Virus record (IMG/VR): IMGVR_UViG_3300037484_000776
Coordinates: 22,951-86,950 of that record
From: a virus
Taxonomy: Duplodnaviria; Caudoviricetes
Reading direction: 5' to 3' (one strand)
DNA: 64,000 nucleotides
In this document: one piece after another, positions 2,769-64,000 of the stretch
Layout of the letters: every line of letters starts with the position of its first letter
How positions within the stretch are numbered: the stretch's first letter is position 1
Made by a program: the position numbers and the translations under genes
Notes under the pieces: model-generated
What the model was told of the DNA's origin: nothing
The model's database searches: none
What the model saw: only the letters and a program-made list of their open reading frames with translations

Positions 2769-3561
2769 TGTAAGGGGTAGGACTGGTAAGGGATTCGAGG
2801 TCTTGCAGTGGTTAAAGGCACCTGATAAAACTAAGCTGGATTTAGCCGCTGCTGAAAAAACAAATAAAGCAGTATCTGATCTTTTAAGGAAGTCTTATAG
2901 ACATACAATATCTGAAGTTGCTAAGGCAATGTCTGATAGTATGCCAGCAGCAGTGATAGAGACAAAGGACGAATATGTGGAAAGGGTCGGTAGTGGAATA
3001 ACTGAGTTTGCAGCGTCTTCAGGATCTAAAAGGATACAGTATAGCCATTTACCGGACGAACAGGGGAATATGTCTGCTGGTAGATTGGCCACAGATAATT
3101 GGAGGAAGCTGTCTTATCTTTATGGGAAAGGGGGACCTAAACATTGGACAAAAAAGAATACGGGAACCCCGTTTTGGAAAAACCAAGGAGGAATGTCAGC
3201 AGGGTTTAGAGCCTTAGTGTCTGCTAATCCAGGAGTAAGGAAAGGTAAAACTGAAATAGTTAAGACACGAGAAAGTGGAAAGTTTATACTTACTACACAT
3301 TGGACTTTTGAGCCAGTCGGTGATAAGGTAGCGGATAATCTAATCCGGCTTCCTTTCGTAGCTGGTAGTGAGGATGCGGCGCCACGGTCGGCAACCGGCC
3401 TCGGAGTTTCGGTAGGACAGGGACTGTGGAAACTAGGGATTAACGAGGTTGGTAGAGTCAGTGGCCAGTATCCTTATGAAGGTAGGCCATGGGTAGCTAG
3501 GATGGCAGCCACTCTTGGTAGGGACTTACGTTCGCGGGTATGGAAACTCGGCAAGAAGTAA
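2740..3561 (+). CDS. Putative neck / tail completion protein
   Basis: 273 aa basic protein in the head-tail block; positional inference. Confidence 0.4.
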   Translation: MAQVSLKVRSVRGRTGKGFEVLQWLKAPDKTKLDLAAAEKTNKAVSDLLRKSYRHTISEVAKAMSDSMPAAVIETKDEYVERVGSGITEFAASSGSKRIQYSHLPDEQGNMSAGRLATDNWRKLSYLYGKGGPKHWTKKNTGTPFWKNQGGMSAGFRALVSANPGVRKGKTEIVKTRESGKFILTTHWTFEPVGDKVADNLIRLPFVAGSEDAAPRSATGLGVSVGQGLWKLGINEVGRVSGQYPYEGRPWVARMAATLGRDLRSRVWKLGKK

Positions 3562-55892: not shown

Positions 55893-56861
55893 TTATTGCA
55901 TGGTAAGGGAGGTGTTGTATGCCTTGTTCATAGCCTTGGAAGACCCAGTAAGGTCAATAACAAAAGCATGAACAGTGCTACTCTCCTTAAATCCTAATCC
56001 TATCTTAAAGCTCATCTTCATTGAGGACATAAATTCCTTGCTTATGTCCGTGGCATAACAAGTCATATTGTTAATCGCCTTTACCTTGTCAAGATTTCCT
56101 TGCCCAGAACTAACGGTCTGCCCATCTTCTGCAACAAGAAGAGCTGAGAACTCCATAACATTAGGGCCCACAGCAATACCTGAGTTGCAAAAGATCAGCA
56201 TGGGCTCTTCTGGCTTGGGGAAACCAATGGCAACAAAAGTGTTATCACTCTTTATGAAGGCAACGTGTTGCTCTGCCTCCCATTTGCCGGTTATCTCTTC
56301 GCTTACCTGCTTCTGCTCAACATTGGTAACTACAGCAGGCTTAGCAACCTGTGGCACAATAGTCGGAGTGCTAGGCACACTAACAGCAGCTGCGCTAGGC
56401 TGCACCGAATTCCCATTAAAGGTAAGAGTGTTACTTGTGGTAGAAATACTCCAAGGCTCTATCTTTGACAAAGCCGACATACCAAGGAGAAATGGCCCGT
56501 CTACTCCAGGGATAGTAGCCGCAACAACGTTTGTGAGAGTAGTATTCCCAATCTTTAACGTCCTAATCTTAAACTCTACTGTTTTTACGGTATCTCCATT
56601 CCCTACGCCGGCCTCATCCTCTCCAATAATATCTCCCGTCTGCACCTTTCCAGTCAAAACAAGGGTCTTAAACACAGAATGCGGAACTAGCACTGCATAA
56701 GCTCCACTATCCACCTGGAAATCTACAGTTATAGTCCCGTTAACAGTCACCGGAACGGTTATCGCCCCACCCTCCACCGAGGTAAGAGGAATTATCTCAG
56801 CACTCACCATTGCTGGGATAATAGCCAAAGCAGTCTTCAAACCTAACTTAAACGTCTTCAT
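55893..56861 (-). CDS. Secreted clan AA (retropepsin-like) aspartyl protease with C-terminal domain
   Basis: Signal peptide (MKTFKLGLKTALAIIPAMVSA), VTVNG, FQVDSGA catalytic motif, LLGMSAL, P/S/T-rich linker and a second domain. Confidence 0.82.
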   Translation of the reverse strand: MKTFKLGLKTALAIIPAMVSAEIIPLTSVEGGAITVPVTVNGTITVDFQVDSGAYAVLVPHSVFKTLVLTGKVQTGDIIGEDEAGVGNGDTVKTVEFKIRTLKIGNTTLTNVVAATIPGVDGPFLLGMSALSKIEPWSISTTSNTLTFNGNSVQPSAAAVSVPSTPTIVPQVAKPAVVTNVEQKQVSEEITGKWEAEQHVAFIKSDNTFVAIGFPKPEEPMLIFCNSGIAVGPNVMEFSALLVAEDGQTVSSGQGNLDKVKAINNMTCYATDISKEFMSSMKMSFKIGLGFKESSTVHAFVIDLTGSSKAMNKAYNTSLTMQ

Positions 56862-56879: not shown

Positions 56880-57050
56880 CTACCTAATACGTGCCATCTG
56901 TGCCGTTCTTAGCTCCTGCGCCAACTTCATGTCGGTCTCCCTGACTATCGCCCTGATCTCATCTAACTTGGCTTCATTTGAGCTAATTACTGCACCTTCT
57001 TCCTTTGCCTTATATGCCTCAACAACGGCTCGCCATCTTGGTTTATTCAT
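56880..57050 (-). CDS. 56-aa helical hypothetical protein
   Basis: Hand-translated MNKPRWRAVVEAYKAKEEG...; SD gagg. Confidence 0.45.
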   Translation of the reverse strand: MNKPRWRAVVEAYKAKEEGAVISSNEAKLDEIRAIVRETDMKLAQELRTAQMARIR

Positions 57051-57057
57051 AACAACC

Positions 57058-57645
57058 TCAACTTTCTATCTCATAATAACCAGATCCCTCTATCCCGAGG
57101 GCGTTAGCTTCATCTGTGTCCAAATGAATCTCTGGCACAGTATTCTCGTCTCCCTTACGCACGAGAACTCCTTCCAAAATGGCCGGCCTTTCCCCATGGA
57201 TCTTGGCCTGCACATAAGACCCGTCCTCTACCCCAAGCACCGTAAGCAAACGGGATGGCAAGTGTACGTGCCTCTCAGCTATAATCCCTGCCATCCTCTT
57301 GATTTCGTTACCATTATTTGCCAAAGTAACCTCGGCAGCCCCAGTCAAATCCCCTGAACTTCTTATGGGAACCTCCTTCCTCCCAACTTGCGACAACTGG
57401 GAGCGCAGCAACTCCACTTGCGTAACCGAACGGCAAGGCCCTAAAACCTTCAGCAGCAAAGGACGCCTCACCATTGGACCGCTAACAGTTACCCTAGTCT
57501 TGGACACAAAAAAGCCTGGCTGAACCAGGCTTGGGGCTTCAGGATCTGGAACGAGAACCGATCCAGACCCGAACAGATCCTCTAAATCCCCTTGACTAAT
57601 GTGGATATGTGCGCCAGATACGCTCGTTAAAATTCGAGAACTCAT
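57058..57645 (-). CDS. pduL: PduL-family phosphate propanoyl/acetyltransferase
   Basis: VSGAHIHISQ.DLE.LFG, QPG.F, GP, VLGP.R..TQVE, P.RSSGDL.G, RHVHL, GERP.I...VLVR and HLDTDEANA align along the whole PduL length. Confidence 0.88.
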   Translation of the reverse strand: MSSRILTSVSGAHIHISQGDLEDLFGSGSVLVPDPEAPSLVQPGFFVSKTRVTVSGPMVRRPLLLKVLGPCRSVTQVELLRSQLSQVGRKEVPIRSSGDLTGAAEVTLANNGNEIKRMAGIIAERHVHLPSRLLTVLGVEDGSYVQAKIHGERPAILEGVLVRKGDENTVPEIHLDTDEANALGIEGSGYYEIES

Positions 57646-57667
57646 CTTTATCTCCCCTCTGTTGATG

Positions 57668-57712
57668 CACCTAGACCTTAAAGCTAAAGCTAAAGCTAAA
57701 GGTCTAGGCGCG
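57668..57712. repeat. Inverted CTAGG motif pair around (aaagct)3
   Basis: gcacctagacctt...aaggtctaggcgc in the mazG-pduL intergenic gap. Confidence 0.7.
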
Positions 57713-57720
57713 ACTTTAAA

Positions 57721-58071
57721 TCAATCCTTTATAAAAATACCTTCCTTGGTAAATCCCTTGCGAACACTTATGATCAACCACGCTTCGTACAAACAACTAT
57801 TGAGAAACTCCTTGGCAAAGACCTTGCGGGCTTCTTCATCGTCGGGATACTTGCTCATTGCATAGCAAGACCCGAAGTTAACAAGAACCACCAGCAAATC
57901 CCCAACTGCATCCTCAATCCGACTACTGTTATTTCTTGCAATCCCTGCCGCCAGCTCCCCCAGCTCTTCCGTTAGCTTGACAAACTGCGGACGCAAGTCC
58001 GCAACGTGCAAACTACGCTCTGCACCCCACCCGATGACGTTTTCAACAAGCTCTTCGAACGTTGGCATCAT
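57721..58071 (-). CDS. MazG-like nucleotide pyrophosphohydrolase
   Basis: KLTEELGEL...EDAVGDLLVVL. Confidence 0.82.
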   Translation of the reverse strand: MMPTFEELVENVIGWGAERSLHVADLRPQFVKLTEELGELAAGIARNNSSRIEDAVGDLLVVLVNFGSCYAMSKYPDDEEARKVFAKEFLNSCLYEAWLIISVRKGFTKEGIFIKD

Positions 58072-60252: not shown

Positions 60253-60271
60253 ATGCTTCTCTTGCGTTGTC

Positions 60272-60312
60272 CTTGCCCTTGCCCTTGCCCTTGCCCTTGC
60301 CCATGCCCTTGC
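60272..60312. repeat. (ccttgc)n hexamer run
   Basis: About 6-7 copies, one variant ccatgc. Confidence 0.85.
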
Positions 60313-60345
60313 GCCTATACCGGGAGGGGGCCCTCAAGAGCCCTC

Positions 60346-60579
60346 TCACCTCCTTGGTCTAGGCGCGATCCTAAACATCTCTCCTTGACTCCTCCTTGGT
60401 CTAGGCGCGATCCTAAACATCTCTCCTTGACTCCTCCTTTGACTCCTCCTTGGTCTAGGCGCGATCCTAAACATCTCTCCTTGACTCCTCCTTTGACTCC
60501 TCCTTTGACTCCTCCTTGGTCTAGGCGCGATCCTAAACATCTCTCCTTGACTCCTCCTTGGTCTAGGCGCGATCCTCAA
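60346..60579 (-). CDS. Candidate protamine-like Arg-rich repeat peptide
   Basis: (MFRIAPRPRRSQ[RRSQ]nGE)n with 26 Arg in 77 aa; every unit has aaggagag-ATG. Could instead be non-coding. Confidence 0.35.
   Translation of the reverse strand: MRIAPRPRRSQGEMFRIAPRPRRSQRRSQRRSQGEMFRIAPRPRRSQRRSQGEMFRIAPRPRRSQGEMFRIAPRPRR
60349..60576. repeat. 42-bp tandem repeat (4 full + 1 partial) with variable 12-bp inserts
   Basis: Unit cctccttggtctaggcgcgatcctaaacatctctccttgact at 60349, 60391, 60445, 60511 and 60553 (partial); insert cctcctttgact x0, 1, 2, 0. Confidence 0.92.
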
Positions 60580-61518
60580 TCATGAGTCCATGTTATCTGG
60601 AGAATACCGGACATCCCCTTCCACCTCCTTGGGCTTCCAACTCCTTATAACCTCAATTTTTACATGGTTCGAGCTAGGCCCAAAAACCCCGCCTCCCCAA
60701 GTATCTTGAACCTTTACCCACTCTTCCATCGCAGCTTCGCTTCGTGCCAAGACCTCAAGCAAAGTACTGTAATACTTGTCCTCCCTGTCTATCCAAAGCA
60801 GGTAACCTATCGCCAATTCCTTTATGGCAAAGGTTCCATACTTGCCCTTAGAAAAAACCGGCGCACCTTCTTCCAATTCCATACCCCTGCCCTTAAACAC
60901 CGCTACAACTCCCTTTGTTACTTCGTTCTTGAAGTAGTACCCTGGCCCTCGGTTTATGCTAAACCTTCCAATAGTATGCAGATCTGTAAGGTTATAATAA
61001 CCTAGATACTCCCTACAATATACTCCCATCAAGTTTACAAAAGGAAGATCCATATCGTAAATTAACTTATAAGCTATATCAGCTTTAGTTCCGACTTCAT
61101 AAGGAGATAAGTCCACGTTAAACCCCCGTACCTGTTTCAAATGTTCTACACTAAGCCCATGCCCATACCCTTTTCCAGCAAAATCCCCGCACCCGGTAGG
61201 ATCCATAGGTGTCTCGGGTAGGGCAAAAGAAGCCATCTCCCTCTCGTGCGTCTTACTTGGCCTGATTATTGTCTTCACTTCTTTTTGGTGGCCCATAAGC
61301 CTTTTCCAAGGAGGAACTCCCCAGTCCGTGCTAAAGCCCTTCTCCCCTGCCCCTGCCCCTGCCCCTGCCCCCACTCCTTGGGCAAGGGCGTCCTTCTTAG
61401 CTTCAAGCTCGATCCTCTCTAATGCGGCGTATCCTCTATATGCACCAGTCCTTTTATTCTTGGCAACGCATCTGCCAACAAGGTTCTTCCTTAGAAGTTT
61501 CTCTATATCTATAGTCAT
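60580..61518 (-). CDS. 312-aa hypothetical protein
   Basis: SD gaggt, long ORF with GAGAGAGAG linker; no family recognised. Confidence 0.7.
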   Translation of the reverse strand: MTIDIEKLLRKNLVGRCVAKNKRTGAYRGYAALERIELEAKKDALAQGVGAGAGAGAGEKGFSTDWGVPPWKRLMGHQKEVKTIIRPSKTHEREMASFALPETPMDPTGCGDFAGKGYGHGLSVEHLKQVRGFNVDLSPYEVGTKADIAYKLIYDMDLPFVNLMGVYCREYLGYYNLTDLHTIGRFSINRGPGYYFKNEVTKGVVAVFKGRGMELEEGAPVFSKGKYGTFAIKELAIGYLLWIDREDKYYSTLLEVLARSEAAMEEWVKVQDTWGGGVFGPSSNHVKIEVIRSWKPKEVEGDVRYSPDNMDS

Positions 61519-63799: not shown

Positions 63800-63835
63800 G
63801 CCCCAACAGGAGCAGGATACAACTAAATAGTAACG

Positions 63836-63862
63836 AAAAAGGCCCCTGCTCGGGGCCTTTTT
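63836..63862. terminator. Intrinsic terminator (A- and U-tracts)
   Basis: aaaaaggcccc-tgctc-ggggccttttt. Confidence 0.75.
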
Positions 63863-63873
63863 CATGTCTGGAA

Positions 63874-63930
63874 CGCGCCTATACCGCGCCTATACCGCGC
63901 CTATACCGCGCCTATACCGCGCCTATACCG
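63874..63930. repeat. 11-bp tandem repeat x5 (cgcgcctatac)
   Basis: Units at 63874, 63885, 63896, 63907 and 63918; the same motif occurs at ~60311. Confidence 0.92.
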
Positions 63931-64000
63931 GAGCCTAAAAAGCCCAGGTTTAGTTGGGACGGTCTTCGAGAACCGCGTATATCGCATAGATAAGGGTGAA

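Follow-up and report, generated by a model that had tools for sequence, protein, structure and literature searches.

A divergent PduL-type phosphotransacylase gene in a complete phage genome

We find a gene for a divergent PduL-type phosphotransacylase in a phage genome rated complete, a context for which we found no verified precedent. PduL is known as the enzyme at the core of bacterial microcompartments that recycles CoA; less often, it stands in for Pta in the cytosol. Here we describe the gene, the phage genome that carries it, the predicted fold and active site of its product, and its standing among cellular and viral sequences. The protein keeps the metal and phosphate sites of the family and departs from it at positions that are predicted to lie on the CoA side. 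Comparisons with characterized and stand-alone PduLs point to an enzyme that would work in the host cytosol, on the acetyl-CoA/acetyl-phosphate node.

The PduL gene and its phage genome

The window analysed here is a 64,000-nucleotide stretch of DNA, bases 22951–86950 of the 86,950-bp tailed-phage record IMGVR_UViG_3300037484_000776, whose completeness CheckV estimates at 100% (rated complete). Positions 1–205 of the record equal positions 86768–86950 (window 63818–64000), except that the left end has the 11-bp tandem repeat CGCGCCTATAC two more times (205 nt versus 183 nt). It follows that the phage genome either has redundant termini or closes into a circle, despite its source label ‘linear’, which was probably assigned because the ends differ by these two repeat copies. 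The record encodes a large terminase (TerL), a portal, a head protease and a major head protein (MCP), as well as a tape measure protein (TMP) of 2,117 aa with a lytic domain. Its replication and nucleotide genes comprise a DNA polymerase, a primase, a helicase, SbcCD, a ribonucleotide reductase (RNR) and a thymidylate synthase (ThyA). No integrase was found in the record, and the phage is lytic-looking. By sequence comparison the phage itself is an orphan: its primase shares at most 39% identity with any of 5.8 billion proteins, and its DNA polymerase about 32% with those of Vibrio and Pseudomonas siphoviruses.

PduL lies within a long minus-strand arm that carries replication and accessory genes. 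The same arm encodes a Stealth-like phosphotransferase, a Methyltransf_24 enzyme, a DXD glycosyltransferase and an FkbM methyltransferase fusion, the second domain of which matches a PHROGs glucosyltransferase family. The features of the locus, in the order in which they are read, are as follows (window coordinates).

57721–58071, minus strand: MazG-like nucleotide pyrophosphohydrolase, 116 aa (PF03819, 22.7 bits against a cut-off of 22, E = 1.2e-4)
57667–57711, minus strand: 13-bp stem-loop in the MazG–PduL spacer (MFE −28.5 kcal/mol, z = −3.5 versus shuffles)
57652–57657, minus strand: Shine–Dalgarno sequence GGGGAG, read from the sequence, 6 nt before the ATG at 57645
57058–57645, minus strand: PduL-type phosphotransacylase CDS, 195 aa, ATG start, frame uninterrupted
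57512–57532, minus strand: terminator-like hairpin with a T-run inside the PduL ORF (9-bp stem, 3-nt loop, TTTTGTGT tail)
56880–57050, minus strand: 56-aa ORF without assigned function, ATG 7 nt past the PduL stop codon

The MazG-like gene is the upstream, same-strand neighbour of PduL; its Pfam match is marginal and its NCBIfam MazG matches are weak. The stem-loop in the spacer carries the motif CGCGCCTAG (57704–57712) and a (TAGCTT)3 loop; after it come GGGGAG, a six-nucleotide gap and the ATG. Downstream, the 56-aa ORF, for which neither Pfam nor PADLOC gave a match, is probably co-translated with PduL. The intragenic hairpin spans codons S39–V47, and its T-run is formed by the codons of the unusual Phe45-Phe46 pair. 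Terminator-like sites around PduL number 14, against 6.8 ± 3.0 in shuffles, and the hairpin inside the gene may be due to chance or may be an attenuator. A defence-related protein was considered and rejected, neither PduL nor its eight neighbours having a PADLOC match.

The public gene call at this locus corresponds to window positions 57058–57396, that is, only the C-terminal 112 aa with a TTG start at Leu84, and omits the first HxH metal site. Judged by the reading frame and its Shine–Dalgarno sequence, the true gene is clearly the full 195-aa frame and not the 112-aa call.

The motif in the MazG–PduL spacer belongs to a conspicuous array. The window contains 26 copies of the 9-mer CGCGCCTAG, where 0.23 would be expected; 25 of the 26 lie between 57704 and 63535, and the leftmost is the one in the spacer. 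The copies mostly read along the minus strand up to about 62.1 kb and along the plus strand beyond 62.9 kb; they flank an AT-rich core, and the array looks like an origin or an array of early promoters or operators. At window 60253–60585, long repetitive ORFs occur on both strands (PCPCPC... and SRRDPKHLSLTPP repeats); these are artefacts of the tandem motif array, which sits just downstream of a KilA-N-domain gene (60580–61518). Elsewhere in the locus, two genes downstream of PduL, a 322-aa protein (55893–56861, minus strand) combines a hydrophobic N terminus with a retropepsin-like aspartyl protease domain (PF13975/PF13650), an unusual gene for a phage.

Fold and active site

The first-pass annotation, made from the sequence alone, had described a full-length PduL, and the profile search bears this out: residues 8–185 align with positions 3–175 of the 176 in PF06130 (PTAC, ‘phosphate propanoyltransferase’), covering the whole domain with 142 bits and E = 2.2e-41 (Pfam cut-off, 25 bits). 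The protein also matches two NCBIfam models end to end, PRK15070 with 148 bits (naming cut-off 209) and BMC_EutD_Gpos with 131 bits (naming cut-off 315). Because these scores fall below the naming cut-offs, phage PduL would be classed as a divergent member of the family rather than an equivalog.

The only relative with a solved structure is Rhodopseudomonas palustris PduL (R. palustris PduL, or rPduL; PDB 5cuo/5cup, E = 1.9e-24). An AlphaFold2 model built from a 36-sequence alignment reached a pLDDT of 93.8 and a pTM of 0.89. In Foldseek this model superposed on 5cuo_A with E = 4.9e-20, TM scores of 0.90/0.93 and an rmsd of 1.5 Å, and no other fold came near. The phage protein is thus predicted to adopt the two-barrel fold of PduL.

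We refer to active-site positions by the residue names of Erbilgin et al. 2016 (PMC4784909), in which the number equals the 5cuo chain index plus 32. All six zinc ligands are kept: His48, His50, Glu109, His157, His159 and His204 correspond to H13, H15, E78, H126, H128 and H174. The motifs that had been read from the sequence are all in place (H13-I-H15, H126-V-H128 and H174-LDTDEANA-182). The phosphate-positioning residues Arg103 and Ser127, present in 236/236 and 235/236 PduL homologues, respectively, are kept as R72 and S97. Further retained residues, in rPduL numbering, are Ser45, Gln74, Leu99, Gln107, Ala154, Arg194 and Asn211. Like R. palustris PduL (5CUO/5CUP; PMC4784909), the phage protein therefore combines the two-barrel fold (TM 0.90, rmsd 1.5 Å) with the identical six zinc ligands, Arg103, Ser127, Ser45, Ala154, Arg194 and Asn211. 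In the alignment of 236 PduL domains, conservation reaches 90% or more in 28 columns, and phage PduL keeps 26 of them, within the range of natural members, at an overall identity to the homologues of 38–43%. Purifying selection acting on the active site would be expected to leave just such a pattern, with conserved columns kept intact on a very long branch, here seen in a single sequence.

Unlike R. palustris PduL, to which it is 32% identical, the phage protein carries Arg47→Ala, Lys70→Pro with a three-residue insertion, Arg97→Lys and Gln77→Phe; it also has no encapsulation peptide, and the phage has no microcompartment genes. The residue before the first metal-binding histidine, Arg47 in the S-x-R/K-H motif of rPduL, is Ala12 in the phage. 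The replacement of the usual S(N/A)RH by SGAH had been pointed out earlier, and S10-G-A-H13 is indeed what is seen. Among 233 aligned PduL domains this column holds R in 168, K in 52, H in 12 and C in 1 (R/K/H in 232/233), making the alanine nearly unique. Arg47 is absent from the catalytic residues listed for rPduL (PMC4784909).

The position of the CoA contact Lys70 is Pro35 in the phage protein; the column is K/R in 205/236 homologues and not K/R in 31/236. The loop around it carries an insertion of three residues that is present in 0/236 homologues. Arg97 is replaced by Lys66. Gln77 is replaced by Phe45; an aromatic residue occurs there in 6/236 homologues (F in 4, Y in 2), including PduL of the Kuenenia (planctomycete) type, and Tyr77 is discussed in the structure paper as a difference near the active site (PMC4784909). 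Within the CoA-contact set, Ser45, Leu99, His204 and Asn211 are thus kept, Arg97 is a lysine, and the Lys70 position is a proline in an insertion-bearing loop. The changes at 47, 70, 77 and 97 all map, by homology, to the CoA/acyl side, and those at 47, 70 and 97 could weaken or alter CoA binding.

Relatives in cells and in viral databases

Among 1.84 billion cluster representatives, searched exhaustively with HMMER, 1,302 clusters are PduL-like. The highest identity to phage PduL, its own gene product excepted, was 45%, and the protein’s own cluster has one member. The best matches in named genomes, at 36–42%, come from Actinomycetota, Clostridia, Planctomycetota, Spirochaetota and others (80 loci). 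Shell genes lie within 8 kb at 31 of these 80 loci and are absent at the other 49. Of the shell-free loci, 47 form a well-supported clade of short PduLs that lack an encapsulation peptide and come from Anaerovoracaceae and related Clostridia; in Anaerovorax, for example, the PduL gene sits among clpX, lon, engB and deoC. A cytosolic PduL independent of compartments is thus an established state of the family, and those of Anaerovoracaceae look like housekeeping enzymes. Position 47 differs between the two contexts, being Arg in 31/31 loci near shell genes and Lys in 48/49 loci without them (mostly Anaerovoracaceae); it may be a marker for compartment-bound versus cytosolic PduL, or reflect a lineage effect.

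The stand-alone PduLs of Anaerovoracaceae and other Clostridia are the highest-identity relatives (42–43%), and phage PduL resembles them, as in Anaerovorax sp. IOR16, in its length of about 190 aa and in having neither a targeting peptide nor shell genes within 8 kb. Unlike the phage protein, they form a tight, supported cellular clade, with phage PduL outside it, and have Lys at 47 (48/49), Lys at 70 and a setting among housekeeping genes. The terminal branch of phage PduL measures 1.44 in FastTree and about 3.1 in IQ-TREE (range 1.4–3.2 changes per site), and the protein joins no supported clade in either tree that would name a donor lineage.

The earlier remark that no microcompartment genes lie nearby extends to the whole 86,950-bp record, in which no BMC shell domain (PF00936) was found. 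Nor does the record encode an acetate kinase, a GNAT acetyltransferase or an aldehyde dehydrogenase anywhere, and the accessory arm holds no related enzyme. The PduL domain begins at residue 4–8, whereas homologues that bear an encapsulation peptide have 20–40 extra N-terminal residues. With neither encapsulation peptide nor shell genes, a microcompartment-targeted enzyme was rejected. The phage PduL bears no encapsulation peptide and the record encodes no shell protein, acetate kinase or aldehyde dehydrogenase, so the enzyme would have to act free in the cytosol alongside host enzymes. Cytosolic PduLs are common in Clostridia, so the lack of a microcompartment is not in itself odd for the family. 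The phage protein shares with acetate kinase–PduL fusions, noted by Erbilgin et al. 2016 as replacing Pta (PMC4784909), a setting outside microcompartments and the route from acyl-CoA through acyl-phosphate to ATP; unlike them, it is unfused, and the phage has no acetate kinase.

Leads to the host are few. The phage tRNA-Leu(TAA) (59450–59533, minus strand, CCA encoded) shares its acceptor stem, most of its D arm and its T arm exactly with the tRNA-Leu(GAG) of one Lentisphaeria MAG (contig positions 3329–3416), the sole exact 28-nt match among 185,579 species genomes. Neither a PduL nor a near-identical tRNA-Leu(TAA) was found in that MAG. The tRNA match and the aromatic residue at 77, which recalls planctomycete PduL, together give no more than a weak pointer to a host in the PVC group. 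The best match of the phage ThyA, 36% to a gammaproteobacterial MAG, is uninformative on the host.

The gene had been called an unusual auxiliary metabolic gene (AMG), and a survey of viral databases agrees. No PHROGs family matches phage PduL. A tblastn search of INPHARED with PduL returned 12 matches at 31–37% identity, all in unannotated ‘UNVERIFIED’ records, and all three that we inspected were host-like. OR846749.1 (‘Listeria phage LM 4-11-1’) holds eight BMC shell domains and is a host pdu/eut locus. MT835662.1 and MT836789.1 (faecal ‘Bacteriophage sp.’) encode SpoIIM, an ABC solute-binding protein and a CAAX protease; the ORFs scanned in them include no hallmark gene of a phage. These three records, filed as phage, hold bacterial chromosomal DNA and would give rise to false viral AMG calls. 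The Vibrio and Pseudomonas siphoviruses with a related DNA polymerase gave no PduL match in the INPHARED search.

In IMG/VR we scanned 2.9 million contigs with the single hallmark pattern HLDxxEAN, a survey that is hence not exhaustive, and obtained two loci. One is an Ack–PduL fusion beside a phosphoketolase, a P-type ATPase and a GGDEF protein, that is, a host flank. The other is a 5.3-kb, 11%-complete contig in which a 5′-truncated PduL (3–242) converges on a seemingly broken capsid gene, with portal, S49 protease and HNH genes alongside; it is ambiguous between a second phage-linked PduL and the edge of a decayed prophage. Scans of IMG/VR with phage PduL alone, with the phage primase or with the 45%-identity relative found no relatives.

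Published mentions are at list level only, and we found no characterized phage PduL in the literature. A study of a Baijiu metagenome lists K15024, at KEGG level, under ‘viral AMGs’ (PMC12508846), and one of pig-gut viromes lists a ‘phosphate acetyltransferase’, not further specified, together with ackA (PMC10006684). The impression that PduL is not among the commonly listed phage AMGs is therefore right as to its being very rare and needs amending for the K15024 entry (PMC12508846). Like these Pta/AckA-type and K15024 AMGs from virome surveys (PMC10006684; PMC12508846), the gene described here is a proposed virus-carried phosphotransacylase at the acetyl-CoA/acetyl-phosphate node. Unlike them, which are automatic list annotations on metagenomic contigs with no check of residues or genome context, it has been placed in a closed phage genome and checked residue by residue. 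Most PduL matches in viral databases thus amount to host contamination, and in the present case the public gene call is truncated to the C-terminal half.

That history is what speaks for a host origin of our segment as well, through misassembly or over-extension of a prophage, given that most viral-database matches proved to be host-like DNA (OR846749, MT835662, MT836789 and the Ack–PduL contig). The record itself speaks against it: it closes on itself, its ends being equal barring the two 11-bp repeat copies, and no integrase was found in it. Phage genes flank PduL on both sides, and strand bias and GC skew continue unbroken through the gene. Its synonymous codon usage is phage-typical (z = +0.46, rank 44 of 67 among the phage’s larger ORFs), its GC content lies at z = +1.0 versus the same ORFs (n = 67), and the phage motif CGCGCCTAG stands in its upstream spacer. 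The closed genome, flanking phage genes, codon usage, skew and motif together make host DNA or a chimeric join very unlikely, to the point of being scarcely credible, and argue that the gene is phage DNA. The embedding among phage genes next to MazG that the first-pass annotation had described thus stands, with the proviso that the MazG match is marginal (22.7 versus 22 bits), and the check for misassembled host DNA that it had called for came out against host DNA.

Possible roles during infection

We favour, with modest confidence, the reading that in the infected cell the phage produces a PduL-type phosphotransacylase that is catalytically competent, works in the cytosol and would drain acyl-CoA by way of the host acetate kinase. 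Because the fold and the dimetal site appear intact, the predicted reaction at that site is acyl-CoA + Pi ↔ acyl-phosphate + CoA. With no phage acetate kinase, aldehyde dehydrogenase or shell proteins, the enzyme would have to plug into host metabolism, and added phosphotransacylase capacity would be its most economical role. Host acetate kinase would then pull the acetyl-/propionyl-CoA pool towards ATP and free CoA during phage DNA synthesis. The location of the gene, at the promoter-distal edge of the motif region and beside the MazG-like gene, suggests an early, host-takeover timing. The strongest argument for retained function is the intact catalytic core on so long a branch. CoA recycling, ATP supply through acyl-phosphate and acetyl-phosphate signalling, as proposed in the first-pass annotation, are all plausible as roles. 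Pta is already present in most bacteria (PMC4784909), so it is not obvious what would be gained from another phosphotransacylase.

Among the alternatives, the one to which we give most weight, though it is clearly less probable than the favoured reading, is a retuned enzyme in which an active scaffold has been remodelled on its thioester side (Ala12, Pro35 with the insertion, and Phe45). Such an enzyme may use another acyl group or carrier, or bind CoA loosely, and its main effect would fall on the acetyl-phosphate pool, and with it on protein acetylation and response-regulator phosphorylation, and not on the energy yield; PduL and the adjacent MazG-like protein would together constitute a small module for resetting global small-molecule signals early in infection. 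In its favour speak the unique disappearance of both the basic residue at 47 and the Lys70 contact, and the unique insertion, as do the rarity of an aromatic residue at 77 (F 4 and Y 2 of 236, the planctomycete type) and the adjacency of PduL to MazG inside the motif-marked region. Lys70, however, is not universal, 31/236 homologues having neither K nor R there, and the metal and phosphate sites are unaltered.

Less probable again, and improbable overall, is a passenger: a horizontally acquired PduL that is useless to the phage, or crippled by the Arg47-to-Ala change, and kept by chance. It would account for the single occurrence (a one-member cluster with no relative above 45% identity), the absence of PduL from the phage’s distant relatives in INPHARED, the very long branch and a public gene call of only the C-terminal 112 aa. 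It fits poorly with an uninterrupted 195-codon frame that has a Shine–Dalgarno sequence and codon usage matching phage genes, with the retention of 26/28 conserved columns and every catalytic ligand despite about 60% divergence, and with a confidently predicted fold. The Stealth-like, FkbM-fusion, Methyltransf_24 and DXD glycosyltransferase genes of the same minus-strand arm raise yet another reading, in which PduL would provide or regenerate the acyl donor used by phage transferases that modify glycans or DNA. We regard it as the most doubtful of these three: those genes lie 4–10 kb off and are not adjacent to PduL, the genome has no GNAT acetyltransferase, and nothing here ties acyl-phosphate to pathways of glycan or DNA modification.

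MazG is a classic phage gene for altering host physiology, among the auxiliary genes of the cyanophage type. Like it, the present MazG-like gene is small, and it lies directly upstream of PduL on the same strand; unlike it, its match to the family is marginal (22.7 bits). One more far-reaching proposal, which we consider unlikely, is that the remodelled PduL, with no basic residue at 47, a rebuilt Lys70 loop and Phe77, acts together with the MazG-like protein to reset host signals early, or else uses another thioester. Acetyl-phosphate would then be affected as a phosphoryl and acetyl donor, alongside nucleotide alarmones. If true, this would make the remodelled PduL the first viral gene product to target the acetyl-phosphate node.

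On the favoured reading of a competent cytosolic enzyme, a PduL in a complete phage genome would extend the catalogue of viral AMGs to the acetyl-CoA/acetyl-phosphate node, which governs ATP yield and the pool of free CoA as well as protein acetylation and two-component signalling. For the family, the phage protein provides a naturally occurring test case for two basic residues that are otherwise almost invariant. For the phage, it may represent a rare, plausible viral route to the host acetyl-CoA pool.
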